Shown here one piece after another: positions 12,047 through 33,522 of a DNA stretch of 51,861 nucleotides (positions are counted from its first letter, which is position 1; each line of letters opens with the position of its first letter). Source of the stretch: Reclinomonas americana ATCC 50394 (lineage: Eukaryota); assembly GCA_048213135.1 (NCBI GenBank), contig PS015130.1, positions 3,584 to 55,444 on the forward strand. Direction: 5' to 3'. The notes below the pieces were generated by a model. The model did no database searches, had not been told where the DNA came from, and worked only from the letters and a program-made list of their open reading frames with translations. A program made the translations under genes and the position numbers.

Positions 12047-14511
12047 GGGGGTGTTCGAGCATCAGTCACCCTTAAATTTTTCGAAAGTGAACCCTTAAGT
12101 TTTCCTGGGCCTCTTCATGACCCCTTAACTTTTTGGCATCCTTGTACGTCATGGATCCCGGGCAGCTGCAGCCTCACCGCGGTTCCGTCGAGTGCCGTCT
12201 TGTGTCCAAGGATGTGGAGGAATGCATCGTCAACCGTACCTACAACCTCACTGGCCGCGCGCAGCGCGCGCTCCGTTTTGCTGAGCTATCGACAACGACA
12301 CTGTTCAACACTCACGTGCTAGAGCAGCTGGCCTTGCCCGACTGTGGAGATCGCGCAAGTCTCACTGTTCTCCAAGCAGACGAGGAGTGGAGTGTGCATC
12401 TTCTCTCCTGCGGAGATGTTGCGTTTGCGCCAAACTTGCTCAGTAACCACTGCAACTGCACGCACGCACACACACACACATGCACTCAAGCACACAAGCA
12501 CATGCACAGCTGGCACAGTGTTAATTCTCCGCACATTTTGTGGCTCACTGCATTCCTCGTCTCCAGCCTCTCATGCAGGGCGGAGCATGCAGACCAACCG
12601 TATGACTATGACCTTGTACCGTGGCGACCTACCTGGCAAAGTGACCTCCTACAGCAGGCACAGAGATCGGTGCTGTTCCTTATCGGTGAGTGACGGCTCA
12701 TTTGCGTCTGTGGTTCCGCTGTCGCACTCAAATCACAACAGTGGTCTGCACTGCTGTTCCACGCGAGCGCAATGTCAACATCGTACTGTCTTACCGTGGT
12801 GGAGCTGGTGGTGGCTCCATTGGCAAGCGCGTTCGCGAAAGAGACTGCGATGAAGATGGGCAGCAGGAGAAACGCAACTTCGTCGCAGTCGAACTCCTCC
12901 GGGTCCGCCTCTGGCTCTGGTTCCTCTTCGTCCTCCAGGGTCGATGCGGCTGCCGCAGCTATCGCAGAGAGACAATCGAATTCCGAAATCGCAGCAGCAA
13001 CGAGAGCTTGCTCGTCTGATCTCAGATTTCAGCAACTCTCCGCAGGTCCGATCGACGGGAAGTAAGTACCGTCTGCATCCAAGGGCACCATCTGGCGGTT
13101 TGTCATCGGCAAGACAATGGCACCTTTCAACCAACTATCTCAGCGGACCGCAGTCGTCGGGTGCGCCTGCTGCGCCCGTTGCACATCCCCGGTTGGCTGC
13201 CAATCGGGACACACGGACTGCCGCTGCCGCGGCGCTCGCCGCTGCGCCGGCCGCACAAGCATCTGCGTCGGGATCGGCGCCTCCGCCCTTGCTGGCAACG
13301 CAGCTGCAGCGCCCTTTGGCGGCGGTCGCAGCTTCTCTGCCAAATGCAATGACTTTCACCGTCGGCCGGTCGCAACGCCCTGTGCTCATTCCTGCGGGCC
13401 TAGGTGGAAGGGGTGCAGCGCTTCGGAATGTCGTGAGTAGCCAGACAGTTCTGGTTCCCGTCCGCCACCCTAGCCCTGTCGGCTCTCATGTCAAGCAGGC
13501 GGCACCGTTGTCGGTATTGGTTCGCAGTATCGATGTCGATCGGTCGAGTCCAGGGCTGGCAGCACCAGTGCCACCGCTGGAACTGCAGCCGGTGCCTGCA
13601 CCTCCATCTTGTGCACCGTTCGTGCCACGGCCACCACCGCCATCGCCGCCACCACCGCCACCACCAGCACTGCCGCTATCACCGCCACCACCGCCACCAC
13701 CAGCGCCGCCACTGGATGCCACTCGCAGTGCAGGTGCAGGTGCAGCTGCAACCGAGACGCCGGAACCTAGCTATAGGCCTCGCCTTCCCCTCGGCCTGCC
13801 ACCACCGCTTCCGCTGCTGCTGCAAGCAGTCACACCCGGTGGCTAAGGGGCAGCTGGAAGTGCAGGGGCGCTTGCTGCTGCTGCGAGGCTGACGCATCTC
13901 CCTCCGACACCGGCATACGGTGTTGCAGGCGTCGAACCGCGGCCGGCGGCGGTGTACCACAGCGAGGACAGCTGCAGCGGCGAAGAGCCAGACTTGTCAA
14001 TGGAGAATTTCACCTCCGGATATCCGCGAAGCGAAATTTTTTACATCAGCAAGAGCAGATGATGCTTGTCGATGATGAGTAAAATGGCCTCGTGGCTGTT
14101 GAATGTGCAGTTGAATTGATACAGAACCGTACCGATACGAATAGAATGAATGATCATGATCGATCGGTCGACTGGAATGCTGGATAAGTTGAGTCTTCTG
14201 TAGATTGGCTCCTGTTTGCAAACCATCACAGCCAACCATCAGCAACGCTATGAGTGATTGCTGTGAGTTAAATGCAAGGCATGGGCATTCTCGCCGGGAA
14301 GATTTCATCGAAATACAAGCTTGAAACGGACCGTTTCCACCAGAACTGGGCGAATTTGGCAGCCGAAACGGCCTGCCTGGCTGGTGTGGATTCGTTAGTT
14401 ACCCCTAGACTATTTTGCCGAAGGCACCGCTAACTTTGTTGAACCCGGGCTCCAATGGGCCTCAGTTACCCCCAAAGAAAATGTGAACCAGGGACACGCT
14501 CGAACACCCCC
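12047..14511. mobile_element. Putative non-autonomous DNA transposon with 14-bp TIRs and a 6-bp TSD
   Basis: GGGGGTGTTCGAGC (12047-12060) is the exact reverse complement of GCTCGAACACCCCC (14498-14511). TGTGTC flanks both ends (12041-12046, 14512-14517). Subterminal ACCC(C)TTAA-like repeats are present. No transposase recognised. Confidence 0.75.
12151..13065 (+). CDS. Hypothetical spliced ORF inside the TIR element
   Basis: Open frames with plausible introns (donors at 12418 GTTGCGT and about 12686 GTGAGT). Exon phases are not resolved and no known domain is seen. Confidence 0.3.
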
Positions 14512-14607: not shown

Positions 14608-16779
14608 TCATTTGGAGAGATGCTCGGTGCAAAAGAGGCGGTCCTTGATGACCTCTGTCATGAGGCCGAGCACTTGTTCGGTGCCGAGTCTGGCACAGTC
14701 GCGACTCAACTTGACCAGCGCCGAGTCCTTCTTGCGACTGCCTGAGCCGCTGCCGCCACCACCACCGCCACCACCACCCATGCCGGCGCTGCCGCTGCCG
14801 GCGGTGAAGTGGAGAGAAGATTGGCGGCTGCCGTAGCGAGAGCCGCCGTCGACTTCGGCCTTTTCAATCTTGCTGGTAATGTCGACGACTTGGTCCGCAA
14901 TGTGGTTGCGATTCTGCGCAGCGGGAGAGTGAGGGACACCCCCTGACGAGATAGAGAGAGGGAGAGAGGAGCGCTGCCGTACCGACAGCAGCGATGAGGA
15001 GGCCAGTGTGGAGACCCAGTACTTGTTCCACAACACCTCCAGCAGCCTGGCGTCGGAGGAGCTCTTAAAGTACGACACCTCCAGCGGGTAGTACCGGTTG
15101 GCATGCACACCAAAGTCCTCGATCTTGCTCAGCGGGATGCTCTGGTAGTCGTCGTCGGCGGCATCTGGTGGCTTGTAGTCTTCGGGGTATGTGCGGAACG
15201 CGCCCAGCTCCACCTTGCCAGCCGCGGAGGTCTTGACCGGGTCAATCTGGGGGAGAAGGAGGAGTGGTTGAGAAGGAGGAGGAGGAGGGGGAGAGGTGGA
15301 GGAGGAGGAGAAGGAGGGAAAAAGGCCAAGAAGAAGAAGAAGGAGAAGAAGGAGAAGAAAAGAAGGAGAATGAAGGAGGAGCAGCCAAACAAGAGGAGAA
15401 GGAGAAAGAGGAGGAGAAGAAGAAGGAGAAGAAAACGAAGAAGGAGGAGAAGAAGAAGAAGAAGAAGAAGAAGAAAAGAAAAGATGAAGAAGAAGATTTA
15501 CAAGGAGAAGAAGAAGAAGGAGAAGAAGAAGAAAAAGAAAAAAAGAAGAAGAAGATTTACAAGGAGAAGAAGAAGAACAAGAAGAGGAACAAGAAGAAGG
15601 AGAAGAAGAAGGTGAAGAAGAAGAAGAAGAAGAAGAAAAAGAAGAAGAAGAAGGTGAAGAAGAAGAAGAAGAAGAAGAAGAAGAAGAAGAAGAAGAAGAA
15701 GAAGGAGAAGAAAAAGAAGAAGAAGAAGAAGAAGAAGAAAAGAAAGAAGTAGAGACGGAGAGAGGGGGGAAGGAGAAGAAGAAGGAGAAGAAGAAGAAGA
15801 ACAAGAACAAGAACAAGAAGATTTACAAGGTGAAGAAGAAGAAGGAGAAGGAGAAGAAGGGGAAGAAGAAGAAGAATACCGAGAGACCAGCGAGGGAAAA
15901 GACCAAGAAGAAGAGGGGCAAGCGGAATGATCCAGCTCAGCTTGACGGGACATCGACCTGCTCCTTCTGCCCCCTTCCACGCAACGACCACGGCCAAGTA
16001 CGGATCCGTGTGCTCCTGATTGCTCATCTGCGTCGACACATCAATGCCCGACAGCCAGCACCCGTAGCCCGGATGCGAGTGATACCAGCCGACGACATAC
16101 TCGCGCCTTCCGGCCTCCTGCGCCATGCACGAGTACGTGACCATGTACTCATTGGCCGAGTCGGCCGCACTCACTCGCGTCTCGGTGCCCTCCACCGGCA
16201 ACGCAAACGAGTCCATAATCACAAAAGTCTCGCCCTCAATCTTGCCCTGCAACAGGCCCATCACCTCCAGAGGCACGCCACTGCGTGCGTGCATGACCAT
16301 CTTCAGCAGTGCAAGTGCGCTGATGCGGACGCGCTTGAAGTAGCCCACACTGTGTGTGCAAGGAGTGAGGTTGTTGTTGTCCACACTTTGATGAAAGTGT
16401 GGGGGAAAAAAGAAGCGGAACTCTTTCGCCCATGGCTTGGCCTGCATCAGAGCAGCGTCGGGTCGATGCCTGTACACTGCGTCGAGGTCCTCCACGCCCT
16501 CTGTAAGAGCAAGAGAGTGTGAGAGCGGAAATGGCGAACTTGTCTTGTGCGCTCACACACACACAGACACACGCGCGCGATTGCGATCAACACACACAGA
16601 CAGTATGCACACACGCAAGAGTGCGAGAGAGAGAGACACGAGCGCGCATTGTGTAAACAAGTGCTATTCTCATCTCTTGTCTGACCACGCATTCTCTCTC
16701 TCTTTCTCTTTCTCTCCAAGCAGGCACGCTCACCGATCTGGTTCTCCAGCTCAAACTGCCGTAACGCGTTGCCAGCCAT
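14608..16779 (-). CDS. CSN5: COP9 signalosome subunit 5 (JAMM/MPN+ deneddylase)
   Basis: [58 protein letters not shown], the intact JAMM motif [17 protein letters not shown], and [17 protein letters not shown]. Confidence 0.96.
15250..15920. repeat. GAA/GGA polypurine low-complexity tract within a CSN5 intron (15247-15985)
   Basis: Almost pure purine on the + strand, with gaagatttacaagg repeated three times. Confidence 0.9.
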
Positions 16780-24837: not shown

Positions 24838-26914
24838 ATGCGGCTTGTGACCGCCCTCCTCGTCGCCCTCGCCACGCTGCTGGTGGTGGTGGTGGTATGC
24901 GCCAACAGCCACGCCACCACGCGCTGGGTCGACAAAGACCGCGACGTCGAGGAAATGTGGAAGTCGCAGGCAGTGGCCGCCGACCTCGTCGATGCTGTGC
25001 ACATTCCGTTGCTCCGACTCGGCGATGACGGAGGAGCCACACTTCCTCTCATGGGCCGCAGTGCAACGGAAGCAGGTGCGCTTACACACACACACACAAA
25101 GAGAAAGAGGGAGCGCGCGACTCTCAAAACTTCGCGTTGCATGTATGCAGCGACGCACATGTGGAACGAGCACGCTGTGCTGCAGGAGCACTACACAGTG
25201 GACGAGGTCATTGACAAGACCGCACGCAGTGTAATGGAGAAAGCGCGCGAGGTGTGCATGCAGCGACTGCAAGTTCGTTTTTTCCTTCCTCACTCTTCGT
25301 CTCTCTGTGTGTGTGTGCTGCATTGCAGGCGAGTGAGAGCTGCCTGAGATCAGTGCCGAGGCCTGCACGCGTGCCACTTCCCGCGGGAATCGATGAGTGG
25401 ACACTGGCAGAGGTTCCGGAGAGTGTGGCGGGTGCGGTGCGGCAACAGCAGCGGGTGCTGCGGTGGAAGCACACGCTGAGCGATTGGTTCTACACCAACG
25501 CTGTGTCATGTTTGCGGTACAACTCGCCGACGAGTCCGTACGGACCGCCGTTGAAGACGCTGCATGCGAAGCTGGGTCGAGTGTGGCGGCGGTTGCGCGA
25601 GGATGCGTCGTTGGAGCTGTCGCAGGAGCAGCGTGAGCAGTTTACACCACCGATCATTGTCGACGTGGGTGCGTCTTCCACCACCACCACCACCACCCCC
25701 CTTCCGAATCCCCTGCGCTTCTTCTCATCTCACACAACACGCACGCGCAGGCGCCGGTGACTCGGCGGCCGGCATCAAGGCCAAGGAGACGGCGGCCGAT
25801 CGCTCCGATGCTGTGTTCTTTGCGCGTGCCTTTGGCAAACACGACGTGCGTGTGTTTGCGTTTGAGCCGTTTCAGCCGCAGTACGAGACGCTGGTTGCTG
25901 AGGCGGCCGAGTTGCCACCTGGGCGACTGACTCCGTTGCTGACCGCTCTTGGCGACAAGGAGAGCGATGCGCAGCCAATGTACAGCACAGTTGGCACGGT
26001 GCGTGGTCGTTGTTGGTTGTCGTTGCTGTCTCATCGATTTCTCACGTCTGTGCGCAGTACGGCAACGTGGACCCCAACAACCCCGGCATGCTCATGTGAG
26101 TTTCTCGGCAAGAGCCTCCGTTGGTGCCATGCTGACTCTATCCACCGGTGCAGGATGCGGCAGCCGACGCCACTCGACCAGTCGTTTGGTATTACCGACA
26201 GACCGACAATGTGGACTCCGGTGGTCTCGTTGGATCACTTTGCGGAGAGTGACGATCGCGCCGTGGCGTTGCTTGCCGGCGACACGAAGCTGTTCTACAT
26301 CAAGGTGAATCCAGCGCCGTCTCGGCCAGGCCACCCTGGCAGAACTCCTCACTCATTTTTTTTTTTTGCTGCGCAGATCGACGTGGAAGGATGGGATTCG
26401 TATGTGATCAAGGGCATGGAGCGACTGATCCGTCGCAACAAGGTCGACATGTTCTCCTTCGAGTATGGCATCTACTGGAACGACGAATTCACAGGAATCG
26501 CGTACACCGAGGGCCGATCGTGGGCATCCGATCCGGCGCACTCACGCTCAGTGGGCGCGCTGCGGACGCCGAAGCTGCGAGATCTCGTCGACTGGCTCCA
26601 CGAACGCGACTTTGACGTGTTTATAATCGGTGCCGGTGTGTGCATGCCCATTGGTGGTCTCTGGTGGCAGGTGTGTCGACTCTGTTTGCTTCTTGCCTTT
26701 TTTCCATCCCCCGTGTCTCACTCGTGTGTCCACGCAGGACGTCTTCGAGGCCTGTGCAATGCACAATCGGCCGCTCGACATGGGAGACGACTTTAAGAAA
26801 TTCTGCACGCAAGACTTGCTGGCGATCCGCCGCGGCAGCCCGCTCTGGCGACCGGTGCTGGACGAGTGCAATTTTGGTCCACTCAAGTGGCATGCCGACG
26901 ACGACGACGAATAG
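24838..26914 (+). CDS. FkbM-family SAM-dependent methyltransferase with signal anchor
   Basis: Hydrophobic N-terminus, then IIVDVGA, VFAFEP, TALGD, YIKIDVEGWDSYVIKG and FSFEY. Confidence 0.85.
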
Positions 26915-26948: not shown

Positions 26949-28800
26949 TTACAGCACCTCCTGCAACCACGTTCGCTCCTCCAGGTGGCGGCCAAACATA
27001 CCGATGCGGCACGGCACGACACCACGCACCACCTCGTGCTGGCAGTGCGCCTCCACGCCGAGGTCAGGCACCAGGACGGTGACAAACTCGAGGTCGAGTG
27101 CCGGTTGATCGAGCCACGCCACCATGTACTCTCGATACACGTCCGTCAGGAGGCCGGATCCAGTGCTGTTCAGCACACAGCTCTCGAACTCGATCTCCGC
27201 CGCCACCTCCACCTCGGTCTTCATTCGCTCCATCATGCGGCGCAACGCATAAAAGGGGAATCGGTGGCCGGCGGTGGCGCCAAACGCGTAGTTGCCGATT
27301 CGCGTGTCGTCACGTGCCTCAACACCTTGCTGCAGCAACTCGGTGTCGCTCAGCACACGTTCGCACGGGAAAAACGCCGTCACGTACGACGGCAGCTCGT
27401 TGAATGAGCGCTCCAGCTCCACATCCACGTCCAGGTACACACCGCCGTAGAGCCCCACAATCGCCAACCGGAACATGTCGTACCGCTGAATGGAGTAGCG
27501 GAGGCTGCGGAACAGCGTCAACCACTCAGGCGGCGCGTGCGCCTCCATCACCGACAGCATGAGTTCGTCGGTCCACACCAGAATCTCCCAGTCGGCGCCA
27601 TGCAGATCACGGAACCGCTGCAGGAAGTTGACCAGACGCGTCGACTCGGGCGATTCGTTCCAGATGACGTGCAGACGGCGAGGAATGGGCGATGGCTCCC
27701 TCGTCGTGTCGTTGACCGGCGCCACCGGCCACGGAGGCGGCGGCAGTGAGTGCACAAGGCCCGGGCAAGTAAACTGCGGTTGAATTGCATCACGCCACCA
27801 GCTGCCTTCGAACAGGTGCACGGCGTAGGCGCCGTAGGTGATGGCGGCGAAGCGCGCAAGATCGTTTGTCGCACACAGTCGGTCAATGTGTTCGTAGTAC
27901 ATCGGCATCATGTACGCCGCATGCAGCAGCTGGACACCACTGTCGTCCTCCTCAATAACACTGCCGAGGAGGAAGGGACCAGTGGTCTCCAAGATGAATG
28001 TCCAGCTGGCAAACTGTACCGGCAACCCTTTTTGCAGCTTCGCAATGGCACCGTGGATCAGACGCTCCAGCAGCGGATGGCCGGGCGGCGACGCCATCAG
28101 TGCATTCGACACAATCACCCCGCGCGTGTGCTTCTCAGCAGAGCGTCCCGGCTCCGTTGGCAGGTACACCTTGGTGGAGCCAACTAGGAACTCCAGTGAT
28201 CGGTACGGCAGCATATCCATGTCCACGTACACCCCACCAAGCGTATGCAGCACGTGCAAGCGACAAATGTCGACCAGCTGAATGGGATACGCCGATAGCT
28301 GCATGTACACGGACACCAGCGCAGGGTAGTGCTCTGCCAAGAGTTGCGCACACTCCTGCACGCCCCACAGCGTGTATGACCACCCCGGATGCAGTTGCTT
28401 CCAGCGCGCAGTCAGCTCGACCGCGTGCGCGGGCATCTCCCCGGTCTCTGTCTGCAGTGCACTGGCGTGCGGCCGCCAGATTTGGTGCAGGTGGCGGGGA
28501 ATGCCTTGCATGAGAGGTGGTGCATCGGCATCAATGAGCTGAGTGGTGGAGGCCTGTGAGAGAGAGTGTGTGTGAGTGAGAGAGAGAGAGGAGGGAGGGA
28601 GGAGAATGCGCGCGTGTGTGCTCTCCTCACCGAGCTGAGCAGCACACTGTCGGAGGCGCCAATGGCGTTTTCCGCTGCGTAAGCTTTTGTGTGAGTGTGT
28701 GTGAGTGTTCAAAGGACAAGCGTCCACGCAGTTGCTCACCAAGAGCGCACGTGGAGAGCACCAGGAACACCAACACGAGCACACTGCATACTCGCGACAT
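26949..28800 (-). CDS. Secreted/Golgi glycosyltransferase with two tandem DXD (GT32-like) domains
   Basis: Domain 1: IPRHLHQIW...VDICRLHVLHTLGGVYVDMD...TGP. Domain 2: IPRRLHVIW...YDMFRLAIVGLYGGVYLDVD...TGSG. Signal-like start MSRVCSVLVLVFLVLSTCALG. Confidence 0.88.
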
Positions 28801-28961
28801 GCGCGAAATCGGAAAGGGTGAGGCGCAGGACAAGCGACTCTGCCGCCGCACAACAAACAAACAAACGACTTCATTCCCCTTCATCAAGCATCATCACTCA
28901 CAGCAACGATCAGGAGTTGCTAGTGTGGCTTTCTGGTTTTTTCCTCTCTCGAAGTTATGAA

Positions 28962-31610
28962 TTACAGCGGGTCGGCAAAGATGAGCGTGCGGCCAGTGTA
29001 GCGCGCGTGCGGCTTGTCGACCAGGTCGGGATCGAAGGCGTAGGGGGCGCAGACCACCAGGTCGGCGCGACCCGAGCCGTCCACGTCGGCCACGGTGGCG
29101 AACTTGCCAAAGCGTCCGCCCTACAGACAGCCAGCAAGTGTCAACACAGCAGTGCAATATAAGGCATGAACAATCATGCGCCAACACGCAACTCGCACGT
29201 CGTCCTCCACTCGCAAGTCGGCCGTAAGCGACAGCGCGCCATTGGTGCCGGAGCTCAGCGCCAAGTTCGTTGAGCGCCACACGTAAATGGCACCCTCGTC
29301 GGCACCCTCTGGGCTCGACAGACGCAAGGGTGCGCTGACGGCCAGATCCGAGTTGCCAGTGCCCTCAAAATCGGCAAACTGCAGCTGCCAGCCGAAGCGC
29401 GCAAACGGCTGCAAGCCGAACAGTGTCGCGCGCACGCCCGAGAAAACGCGACCGCCCGCAATCAGAATCTGCGGCGACACGGAGGATGAGTCACACAGCA
29501 TGCAGTGCTCTTCCCAAACGGTGGCGCACACCTGATCTCCTCGCAGACCGTTCAGGCGGACGACAAAGGCCGCACCCGACTGGATCACATTGGCGCGTGT
29601 GTACGACGGCGCGCCGACGGCCAGCACCGGCTCCTTGTTGCTGCCGAGACGGCCAAAGGACACCGACTGGCCGACCATGATTTGCGGATCACCACCCGAG
29701 AGAGTGAACGCTGTGCAGAGAGTGGAAGCGTGAGGCTCACTCGTTGGTGTGCGCGCAAGTGTTGATGCATTCTCACGTACCGGCAGTTGTCGAGCTGCCG
29801 TATGCAAAGCCGTACACGCGACCGGCGGCTTGCATGTGCGTGTCATTGGCCGGTCGGGCGCCAGGAGCGCCAATAATGACGTAGCTGACGTCAAAAGCAA
29901 GTCAGCCATGGAGAGAGAGGAGACACACACACACGCGCGCGCGTGCTGGAGACATCCTCCTCACCGAGTACCGCTGTCATCCTCGGCCACAGTCATGTCG
30001 TTGCCGAACCACTCGTGATCGACGCTGCCGGTGGCAGACCAGTCGCTCTGTGTAGCCAGAGTGATGGTGCCGGCGGTGCGCTTTGCCGACGACAGCAAAA
30101 TCTGACAGGTGACAGTGCACGAAGTACGGTGAGAGCGCTTCTTAGTTTGCGGTTGCGTGCACATCACGCAACATTAACGCGACCACGGCGATCGCCGCCG
30201 ACTTGAGAGTAGGGCGAACCAATCAGCAGGTCGTCATGCTTGTCGCCGTCAACGTCGCCGGCCACCAGCCGGATGCCGAGGTTGGTGGCAGTCTCCGTCG
30301 AGAAGCCGCCGTCAATCACAATGTCAGGCTGATCAACGAGACCCTTGCCACGTCGTCCGAGGTACACAAACACGCGACCTGGTGGGTGGGCGGTGAGCGT
30401 CAGCTGCGGGAAAGTGAAGGAGAGAGAGAAAGACACACACACACCAATGTACTGCTTCGGGTACTGGTCGTCGAGATTGGTGGGGCCACCGGGGCCCGTG
30501 GACGGCGCAGACACCACCAAATCGGTGATGCCGTCGAGGTTGAAGTCGAGAGCGGCCATGGAGGCGCCGAAGCGAGCCGATGTCACATTGCCACCGGTGA
30601 GAGTGGGGGTGGCGAGGTCGATCGCCTGACGGCCCTGGATCTTGCCAGTGGACATGATGAACACGCCGCCGACATTCGGTTGGTCGCGTCCGCTGATGCC
30701 CGGGGCGCCGATAGCCATTTCCAGCTGTGAAGAGCAGAGGTGTGACGACAACAAAGGGGGTAAAAAAAGGGAGGAACTGTGTCGTCTCAGACTCACCACT
30801 CCATCGCCGTTGAAGTCACCCGTCACAACCGACGTGCCCACGTAGGCGTACGGCAAATCGGTTGTCAGTGTGAGCACATCGGGGTAGTCCTTGGCGCGCT
30901 GATTGTTCTCCTCCAGCAGCGAATCCACAACCATTTTCTAGCGAGTGCGAGAGTGCGCGCGTGAGTGTGTGTGTGTGTGTGTTAGAGGCAGCGCACAGGT
31001 CGACAGGAAGAGAAGAGCGTACGAAACAGCCCACTCCTTGATCATCTCTTCCACATCGGGCGGAGTAAACTTGCCGACAGAGTGGCCGGGCGTGGACACA
31101 CGGGTGCCAGCGGCGGCACGCAGCGCCGCCTGCCTGGCAATCTGCTGCGCCTTCAGCAGCGCCTCGCCCTCCGGCATGGCCGACGAGAGGTGCACACCGC
31201 GCTCCGTGTGCGTCACCTCCACCTTCATGTGCTTCGCCAGCTCGTCGTACTCGTCGTCGGTGAGCTCCAGCGCCTTGCGCACGTGGTGCGCACCGTACTG
31301 GCGCTCCTTGCGCTCTTGCATCAGCGCACCGGCCAAACTATTCTCGTTGTTGGCAAGCAGTGAANNNNNNNNNNNNNNNNNNNNNNNNNNNNNNNNNNNN
31401 NNNNNNNNNNNNNNNNNNNNNNNNNNNNNNNNNNNNNNNNNNNNNNNNNNNNNNNNNNNNNNNNNNNNNNNNNNNNNNNNNNNNNNNNNNNNNNNNNNNN
31501 NNNNNNNNNNNNNNNNNNNNNNNNNNNNNNNNNNNNNNNNNNNNNNNNNNNNNNNNNNNNNNNNNNNNNNNNNNNNNNNNNNNNNNNNNNNNNNNNNNNN
31601 NNNNNNNNNC

Positions 31611-31684
<74 letters not shown>

Positions 31685-32554
31685 AGTCATTCAGCTGCTC
31701 GGTGAGGAAAGCCGCGTGCCACGAGTAGTAGCTGCGATACGGACGAGTGAGACAACAAATGGAGCGCGGAGTGGCGAGAGGTCGACAACGCAACGGGAAC
31801 ACGTAGCCAGCGGCCAGGCGCTCCGCACGCTCGCCGATAAACATAATGGCAGTGCAGGCCTCGATTTCGGCCGCCGGCACCGACATGTTCATGCGCGTGT
31901 AGATTTGCGAGAGGTCATGAGTGGGAATGTACCTGGCGAGTGGCATAGTTGAGCACAGAGGAGGGAGAGAGAGAAAAAGAGATGGGAAACTCGGCTCACC
32001 ACTTGTTGTTGGCCCAGTCGAGCCAGTTGAGCTGACCGCGGAACGAGAAGAAAATGTCGCCGCCAGTGTCGCCAAGAGTGTGGCAAATGGGCTCATTGCC
32101 CGAGTCCCACGTGTCGTTGCACCACGACGCAGCGTGCGACATGGCGTGCAGGTAGCCCTGNNNNNNNNNNNNNNNNNNNNNNNNNNNNNNNNNNNNNNNN
32201 NNNNNNNNNNNNNNNCGGAGAAAGAGAGCGAGAGCGAGAGTGCGTGTGATTGTTAGACGACAATCAATAATCAATGCACACACACAAACACACACACAAC
32301 ATTGTATGCGGGATACTCGGAGAAGAACGCCGACTGCTGCGCGCGCACTGTGATTTCCTGAGAGAGAGAGAGAGTGAGTGACAGAGAGTGAGTGAAAGAG
32401 AGAGACTGGCTGACGGAGACACAACAGTGTGCGTGAGCATTCCACATGCATCGACCAGCGAGGCCACTGCCAGTGCACAGACGAGCAAGGCCACAAGAAG
32501 CACAGTCAGACGACCCCGAGGAGGGGTCGCTGATGCAGCAACGTGAGTGCGCAT
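28962..32554 (-). CDS. GPLD1: GPI-specific phospholipase D-like protein (Zn-dependent N-terminal domain plus FG-GAP repeats)
   Basis: Signal peptide followed by CGMLTHTV, HTLGDTGGD and W..P..DLSQIY. FG-GAP repeats GDFNGDG..MAIGAP, DFNLDGITDLVVSAP, GDVDGDKHDDLLIGSP and DFEGTGNSDLAVSAP. Two gaps hide part of the gene. Confidence 0.85.
31611..31682. repeat. (CA)n microsatellite in an intron beside a gap
   Basis: Seen directly. Confidence 0.95.
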
Positions 32555-33025
32555 TCCCGAGAGATAAGAAGAGGGAAGTGCGGGACGAGAGAATCGCGTG
32601 CCGGTCATGATGAGGGAGAACGAAGGCTGGCATGGTGGTGCGGATCCGAGTAAGGTCTGCCTGGTAGTCGGGGTGTGAACTACGTAACGGTGCAAGTGGT
32701 GAGCGACGTCGTGCATGTGCAGCTGTGATATCATGAAGTCGAAGTCTCGCTGCGATCGACGTCGTTGCTTGTTGTGTGGTGCGCGAGTCTCGTATACCGG
32801 CACTGGCTGGACATGGACCTGTGCGCGTACATAGTGTACGATCCCACGCGATCGCACTGCATGCATGCGCACGTGCGTTCTCGCGCGCGCGCGCGCTAGC
32901 GCTGCGGTCGAGCCGCAGCCATCGGCTGCAGCGCTGTGCTTGCGTGCGTCCTGCAACCATGGCCTTCAGATGTGCACTCTTGAGTATCGAGCACCGTGCG
33001 CTAGACCAAGGCATGTCGGTTCTTA

Positions 33026-33110
33026 GCTTTGGGTGCCCGAGGCGGGGGTTCGATTCCCTCCCAGCGCCCTCCCCTCACGGAAGGCGCTGTAGTGTAGTGG
33101 TAGCATTCGG
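33026..33110 (+). tRNA. Candidate circularly permuted tRNA-Pro(UGG): 3' part (nt 30-73) at 33026-33069, 13-nt spacer at 33070-33082, 5' part (nt 1-29) at 33083-33110
   Basis: Acceptor stem GGCGCTG/CAGCGCC plus discriminator C. D arm GTGT-AGTGGTA-GCAT. Anticodon stem CGG|GC / GCCCG around loop TTTGGGT. T arm GGGGG-TTCGATT-CCC(T)CC. The B box precedes the A box. Confidence 0.85.
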
Positions 33111-33150
33111 TATATTCTGACGGCCGCTCTGCTGGAGCACGGTGCTCAAC

Positions 33151-33159
33151 TTTCTTTTT
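33151..33159 (+). terminator. Putative RNA polymerase III oligo-T terminator
   Basis: TTTCTTTTT immediately after the 3' arm of the inverted repeat that encloses the tRNA. Confidence 0.55.
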
Positions 33160-33522
33160 GATTTCTTTGTGAGGGGCCGGGGGAGTGGTGCAAGCAAGCA
33201 ATGTTTTCGCAACTATTTTTACCCGAACAACAGAATGCGTGCATGCGCATGGCTCCCTGCACGCCACGCTCGGCAGCAGCGCAGCACAACGCACACTTCT
33301 ACTATGGTGGCTGCATCTCGATCAGGCAGGAGCACATGCAATGAATCAACGTCGACGTCGACTTCGCGATCTCTGTCGCTCTCTCCGGAACTGCGCCCGC
33401 AGCGCGTTCACAAAGCAGTTGCATGTGTCACACTGTATGCTGTAGCACTCCGTCACTGCAGACTTCACCAGAGGAAGAGAGAAAGAGAGAGCGGGACAGT
33501 CGTATGTTCGGATTTCTATTCC

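Follow-up and report, generated by a model that had tools for sequence, protein, structure and literature searches.

A circularly permuted tRNA-Pro(UGG) architecture with an anticodon-stem junction in Reclinomonas americana

Only a handful of lineages are known to carry permuted tRNA genes, whose maturation has been explained entirely by a splicing endonuclease acting on a bulge–helix–bulge motif. Table 1 of Soma 2014 (PMC3978253) lists 34 of them, with junctions at 15/16, 20/21, 37/38, 50/51 and 59/60; the same article places the junctions of published permuted genes in a bulge–helix–bulge motif cut by the tRNA-splicing endonuclease and gives a spacer range of 1–74 nt. As compiled there, the Cyanidioschyzon merolae genes (Soma et al. 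2007) carry the 3′ part before the 5′ part on the same strand, with an acceptor-joining spacer of 7–74 nt, no encoded CCA and a T stretch downstream; their junctions vary (20/21, 37/38, 50/51 and 59/60), the in-stem 50/51 among them, and none of the 11 permuted genes is a tRNA-Pro. The genes of the Mamiellales (Ostreococcus and Micromonas) and of the Bigelowiella nucleomorph (Maruyama et al. 2010, again via PMC3978253) are eukaryotic, in nuclear or nucleomorph genomes, with spacers of 5–64 nt. Twenty of these 21 genes have the canonical 37/38 junction in an hBH motif that suits the ordinary eukaryotic endonuclease, the exception being O. tauri Ser(CGA) at 15/16, which is flagged as atypical; tRNA-Pro is absent from the 21 in that compilation. 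In the archaeon Thermofilum pendens, tRNA-iMet and tRNA-Tyr (Chan et al. 2011, PMC3218864) are permuted behind a single promoter, with spacers of 7 and 1 nt, a 59/60 junction with a bulge–helix–bulge motif and an encoded CCA. Finally, permuted tRNA genes were reported in 2025 from Auxenochlorella, a GC-rich trebouxiophyte green alga outside the prasinophytes, where they were found because the tRNAscan-SE set was incomplete (PMC12633428). An earlier note on the DNA described here had listed the carrier lineages; Auxenochlorella was missing from its list.

The locus that we compare with these systems lies on the plus strand, in an intergenic region of about 1 kb between an FG-GAP (GPLD1-like) gene on the minus strand and a PF03407 (GT77-type) gene on the plus strand. 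The tRNA-Pro 3′ part (positions 30–73, 44 nt) comes first, at 33026–33069. It opens with GC, the last two nucleotides of the 5′ strand of the anticodon stem, and continues through the loop TTTGGGT with the anticodon TGG, the anticodon-stem 3′ strand GCCCG, a 4-nt variable region (AGGC) and the T arm (GGGGG, TTCGATT, CCCTCC) with the B box GGTTCGATTCC, to CAGCGCC, the 3′ strand of the acceptor stem, and the discriminator base C (33069). The run CCCTCCC, where the T arm meets the acceptor strand, holds one surplus base. The discriminator is followed by TCC, so that CCA is not encoded, as is the eukaryotic type. A 13-nt spacer, TCCCCTCACGGAA (33070–33082), then closes the 7-bp acceptor stem as a loop, and the minimum free energy (MFE) structure of 32978–33152 (RNAfold) predicts a small TCC/GGA hairpin inside it. 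The 5′ part (positions 1–29, 28 nt) follows on the same strand at 33083–33110 and consists of the acceptor 5′ strand GGCGCTG, T8 and A9, the D arm (GTGT, AGTGGTA, GCAT) with the A box TAGTGTAGTGGTA, T26 and CGG, the first three nucleotides of the anticodon stem. The B box thus precedes the A box.

When 33110 is joined to 33026, the predicted product reads CATTCGG followed directly by GCTTTGGG, and the two halves are exactly complementary, with neither gap nor overlap. The invariant bases U8, A14, G18, G19, A21, U33 and G37, and G15 with C48, can be read from the sequence, as can T54, T55, C56, R57, A58 and the G53–C61 pair. The earlier note had described a permuted tRNA-Pro(UGG) gene at this place, with a hairpin-forming spacer, one extra nucleotide and these two neighbouring genes, and the sequence bears out each of these points; the extra nucleotide is the surplus base of CCCTCCC, lying between T stem and acceptor stem.

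In its order on one strand, its acceptor-joining spacer (13 nt, within the published range), its lack of an encoded CCA, the T stretch downstream and its in-stem junction, the locus resembles the genes of C. merolae. It differs from them in the position of that junction, 29/30 in the anticodon stem, and in its isoacceptor; unlike them, as described in Soma 2014, it has no fitting bulge–helix–bulge motif, no TATA-like box and a much longer helix between leader and trailer, and its host genome is intron-bearing rather than compact. With the T. pendens genes it shares the permuted order and a short spacer, and like them it would be read from a single promoter. The earlier note had suggested a new junction class, and neither a 29/30 junction nor a tRNA-Pro occurs among the 34 genes of Table 1 in Soma 2014. 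Nor does a 29/30 junction appear in the available text of PMC13578239, of the PlantRNA 2.0 preprint or of the O. tauri T2T preprint, or in the main text of PMC12633428. Judged from that table and this later literature, the class is apparently new; the Auxenochlorella junction types lie in Figure S1 of PMC12633428, and since junction types and isoacceptors are absent from its main text, an overlap with a 29/30 tRNA-Pro is possible there.

Other genes in the window, by which we mean the whole 51.9-kb stretch of DNA analysed, give some idea of the host genome. The window is about 58% G+C, and its introns are short; one in the CSN5 (JAB/MPN) gene, whose exon spans 15560–16552 on the minus strand, is 71 nt long and in-frame-looking, starting with GTTCCG and ending with CACAG. 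No protein in the collection searched exceeds 73% identity to the CSN5 exon. Among the best 120 of its 4650 matches, which are spread over plants, fungi and protists, there is no Chlorellales protein, and the two top-scoring ones are internally duplicated proteins. The exon is followed by several hundred bases of an almost pure T/C tract. A protein search found no homologues of a 739-aa open reading frame. An intronless gene at 26949–28874 (minus strand) encodes a glycosyltransferase of 641 aa that has two DXD regions of PF04488 and also matches PF12919 (TcdA/TcdB glycosyltransferase domain); its best relatives, mostly metagenome proteins, are 35–40% identical, its sole organism-named match is bacterial (Aquibium, 30%), and the gene may have been acquired from bacteria. 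With relatives this distant, the new lineage that the earlier note had suggested is plausible.

Several lines of evidence support the permuted reading as more than a chance resemblance. ARAGORN called no tRNA gene in the native window and Rfam gave no match there at gathering scores, so standard scanners miss the locus, as had been expected of it. Once the two parts were joined by coordinates, ARAGORN called tRNA-Pro(tgg) and RNAfold retained the 7-bp acceptor stem, the anticodon arm and the 5-bp T arm, in line with the reordering that the earlier note had proposed. Likewise, the native 85-nt unit was called as tRNA-Pro(UGG) by ARAGORN when read as a circle, with no call when read as a line.

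ARAGORN is, however, lenient around a strong core of acceptor, T and D elements: at default thresholds it accepted 929 different circularisations around the locus, with many anticodons. Detection alone is therefore weak, and we ranked circularisations by the ARAGORN threshold that they survive, using 110 starts and 67 lengths around the locus (7,370 segments). The number of wrap-around tRNAs fell from 180 at 105% of the thresholds to 17 at 110%, 3 at 113% and 2 at 115%, and at 117, 118 and 119% the sole survivor of the 7,370 was the segment with start 33026 and length 85. It is this ranking, and only this ranking, that singles out the 29/30 junction, which the earlier note had placed at the same position and which is the unique optimum.

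Next to this local ranking stands a window-wide scan in which every segment of 73–110 nt was read as a circle by ARAGORN, with the reversed sequence as control. At default thresholds the native sequence yielded 4 loci and the control 5, at 105% the counts were 2 and 1, and at 110% this locus alone remained in the native sequence, against none in the control. No other permuted locus with the B box before the A box, which the earlier note had suggested looking for, was thus found in the window at 110%, and neither ARAGORN nor Rfam found any other tRNA there. A weak wrap-around call of tRNA-Phe (gaa) at 25454–25485, obtained at default thresholds, gave one hit at 105% and was lost at 110%, and we take it as a false positive of the circular scan. 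A second B box and A box, at 13928 and 14400 on the minus strand, are separated by 460 nt that contain no tRNA, and we attribute the pair to chance.

As a yardstick we took the 1237 tRNAs that ARAGORN called at default in 120 metagenomic loci (at least 120 loci matched the search pattern described below). The permuted unit survives 115–119% of the thresholds; 672 of the 1237 controls survived at 115%, 187 at 120% and 5 at 125%. By this measure the quality of the unit is that of a typical real tRNA.

The flanks, moreover, carry no significant continuation of a tRNA. In an alignment of the leader with the 5′ part, 1197 of 2000 shuffles reached the observed score, and the trailer aligned with the 3′ part no better than shuffles did (957 of 2000 reached the score). 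The 5′ part itself occurs once in the window, even when up to 3 mismatches are allowed. Together, the threshold ranking, the window-wide scan, the unrelated flanks and the single copy confirm the observation, including the exact 29/30 junction: the permuted tRNA-Pro(UGG) architecture is real and statistically robust.

What the earlier note had left unremarked is that the flanks pair with each other almost end to end. Leader (32982–33019) and trailer (33117–33152) form an interrupted helix of 28 bp, seen in the MFE structure, as an inverted repeat and in the duplex energy. From its outer end inwards, 32982–32985 pairs with 33149–33152, 32989–32999 with 33137–33147 (11 perfect pairs) and 33001–33004 with 33132–33135; nearest the junction, 33010–33012 pairs with 33123–33125 and 33014–33019 with 33117–33122. 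The duplex energy of −43.2 kcal/mol was reached by none of 2000 shuffles and by 19 of 1338 genomic controls, these being pairs of 50-nt segments taken with equal spacing from elsewhere in the window, and the whole precursor folds with a z score of −3.9.

On either side, 6 nt separate the end of the helix from the junction. On the leader side the A/T-rich linker TTCTTA (33020–33025) runs unpaired from the helix to tRNA position 30, up to the predicted upstream cut between 33025 and 33026. On the trailer side the A/T-only linker TATATT (33111–33116) follows position 29 and the predicted downstream cut between 33110 and 33111; it is unpaired in the leader–trailer duplex, but paired with the D-arm region 33091–33096 in the full-length MFE structure. 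Between them the two linkers have one G or C in 12 bases, against about 65% G+C for the locus. Three nucleotides past the helix end comes a run of five Ts (33155–33159, within CTTTCTTTTTG), a candidate RNA polymerase III terminator judged from general knowledge of that polymerase and from the account in Soma 2014 (PMC3978253); the spacer contains no T run. As modelled, the flank helix looks purpose-built to bring positions 29 and 30 together, which is unexpected of a decaying fragment, and it is the strongest additional argument for a designed precursor.

Two smaller features of the flanks deserve mention. The pentanucleotide TCGGT occurs as a direct repeat bracketing the unit, at 33016–33020 and 33107–33111, and the leader segment 32998–33019 (GCGCT...GCAT-G-TCGG) faintly resembles the 5′ part, a likeness that is not significant and would fit an origin by tandem duplication. 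Spliceosomal back-splice signals can also be read at the trailer start (G/GTATAT...CTGAC) and the leader end (TTCTTAG/), and we set them aside since their use would remove positions 29 and 30 from the joined product.

The known route of maturation, through a circular intermediate, had been assumed for this locus by the earlier note. That route needs a bulge–helix–bulge motif at the junction, and here the assumption is unsupported: no such motif, strict or relaxed, fits with cuts at 33110/33111 and 33025/33026. When we enumerated arrangements that combine a central helix of 4 bp with bulges of 2–4 nt and outer helices of 2 bp or more, 31 motif-like pairings emerged, none of which had its cuts at the junction. 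In the strict geometry at 29/30, worked out by hand, positions 24–27 would have to pair with bases −6 to −3 of the leader, and only a single pair out of four forms; the upstream cut site lies at the right distance from the leader–trailer helix, and the downstream one on the wrong side of the loop. Ectopic tRNA introns in the Guillardia nucleomorph often have no defined motif either (Soma 2014, PMC3978253), so that the missing motif weakens the case while leaving function possible. There is also no TATA-like box in the 50 nt upstream, by a criterion in the sense of Soma 2007/2014 that may not be that of this host.

The surplus base is the other blemish. CCCTCCC has one base beyond the needs of a 5-bp T stem and a 7-bp acceptor stem, and it is real in this assembly. 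ARAGORN accommodates it by shifting the acceptor stem by one base, at the cost of the U8 spacing, and RNAfold leaves a 1-nt bulge; deleting one base anywhere in the run in silico lifts the threshold that the unit survives from 115% to 125%. Possible explanations are a homopolymer error in the draft, a tolerated bulge or a disabling insertion that would mark a pseudogene. The window is a draft scaffold with 7 runs of N (31365–31609, 32161–32215 and five others), several of which adjoin long (GT)n/(CA)n tracts, and none lies within 800 nt of the locus.

These features bear on how the architecture is to be understood. The reading that we favour, and hold to be somewhat better than an even bet from the sequence, is that of a genuine circularly permuted nuclear tRNA-Pro(UGG) gene, predicted to be probably working. 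Its main rival is that the locus is a young, unprocessed and non-functional relic, left when a tRNA-Pro gene was rearranged, either by a tandem duplication whose outer halves were then lost or by some other local event. The surplus base, the junction without a bulge–helix–bulge motif and the absence of an upstream TATA-like box would all suit such a relic, as would the TCGGT repeat with the faint, non-significant leader likeness. It would nevertheless require two independent truncations at exactly complementary positions, in a sequence whose invariant bases and stems are all intact and whose flanks retain no detectable tRNA remnant, and it would leave the 28-bp leader–trailer helix without a reason; we consider this explanation unlikely, though not negligible.

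A different possibility is that the locus encodes a structured non-coding RNA that is tRNA-like and does not decode, with a terminal stem made of its 5′ and 3′ ends and a tRNA-like module of T arm, loop-closed acceptor stem and D arm, in the manner of bacterial YrlA Y RNAs. With tRNA-like local matches aside, Rfam gave no self-cleaving ribozyme or other family, either in 32900–33250 (351 nt) with E allowed up to 10 or window-wide with E allowed up to 1. The best local match in 32900–33250 was to the cyanobacterial tmRNA (cyano_tmRNA, RF01851; 21 bits, E = 5.8e-4, gathering score 70), followed by YrlA (RF02553; 16.2 bits, E = 1, gathering score 69), aligned over 33037–33113. Both are models with a permuted or closed-acceptor topology, in which a T arm and a loop-closed acceptor stem precede the 5′ acceptor strand, as they do here, and both matches, which also speak for the permuted gene, are far below gathering scores. 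The long terminal stem, directly followed by a T run, also recalls a Y RNA. Neither model, in contrast to this locus, has an anticodon arm completed by joining the ends, and a complete canonical anticodon loop on a 5-bp stem that forms only after positions 29 and 30 are joined would be unneeded in a Y RNA. To our knowledge YrlA has not been reported in eukaryotes, which further counts against a reading that we regard as improbable.

Elements of this general shape are nonetheless common among the metagenome loci considered, which lends the Y-like reading some weight. A metagenome scan with a pattern of B box, gap and A box matched at least 120 loci, and in 23 of the 120 taken, some of them tandem tRNAs, the strand after the T arm pairs 7/7 with the strand before the TAGTGTAGTGGTA D arm across a loop of 2–20 nt. 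Loci of this kind include L012, L021/L069/L108, L036/L075, L027 and L033; others among the 23 resemble closed-acceptor tRNA-like elements within extended tRNA arrays. As relatives of the present locus we rejected all 120, each being either tandem tRNAs or such closed-acceptor elements. Going by their sequences and by the tRNA arrays in 10 loci, the matches look like bacterial or phage tRNA arrays, and at Rfam gathering scores the 10 loci tested contained ordinary tRNAs and one GOLLD RNA and nothing else. The GOLLD RNA (211 bits; L036, 6346–6809, minus strand) is surrounded by densely arrayed tRNAs on its metagenomic contig. An exact 32-nt stretch of the 3′ part had no match in prokaryote genomes and none in viral contigs.

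That the architecture is an artefact of assembly, for instance from the collapse or mis-joining of ordinary tRNA-Pro genes arrayed in tandem, is conceivable in a draft window with its 7 N runs and a surplus base in a homopolymer-rich stretch; we rate it as very improbable, because an array of whole genes would start and end in spacer or flank and not at positions 30 and 29, because unique and mutually complementary flanks abut both ends, and because the 800 nt around the locus are free of N runs. Most remote of all is the idea that a tRNA-derived mobile element (SINE or MITE) left a copy here, with the 16-nt inverted arms 32989–33004 and 33132–33147 read as terminal inverted repeats: the 5′ part is single in the window at up to 3 mismatches, a search with the 16-nt arm finds the two arms alone at a chance level of about one match, no target-site duplication is visible outside the arms, and tRNA-derived SINEs have the A box before the B box.

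If the locus is, as we favour, a working permuted gene, how would it mature? The anatomy is what we observe, and from it we infer each step of the following route. A single transcript would run from at or before 32982 to the T run at 33155–33159. Leader and trailer would pair into the interrupted 28-bp helix, docking position 29 (33110) beside position 30 (33026), and the docked halves would stack as a nicked anticodon stem, with CGG (27–29) and GC (30–31) opposite GCCCG (39–43). With no bulge–helix–bulge motif at the junction, leader and trailer would probably be removed without the splicing endonuclease in its known mode, being cut at the two 6-nt A/U-rich single-stranded linkers or trimmed to the stem. 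Ligation of the ends across the stem would give a circle that retains the 13-nt spacer, which RNase P and tRNase Z would then excise at the acceptor stem before CCA is added. We put this forward tentatively: that the gene is functional and matures without a bulge–helix–bulge motif, through helix docking, linker trimming and a nick-sealing RNA ligase that closes 29 to 30, is a model that we ourselves hold doubtful.

Were this route true, it would be a second and mechanistically distinct way of expressing a permuted tRNA gene, in a eukaryotic lineage lacking close relatives among sequenced organisms, and neither a permuted tRNA-Pro nor an anticodon-stem junction would have a precedent, as measured against Table 1 of Soma 2014 and the later literature considered here. 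A working gene with an anticodon-stem junction, no motif and a long docking helix would point to another tRNA cut-and-join route in a eukaryote. It would also widen the space in which ‘missing’ tRNAs are sought in genome annotation and would bear on the origin of permuted genes. Even if the locus is merely a relic, it would still be a rare snapshot of such a rearrangement.
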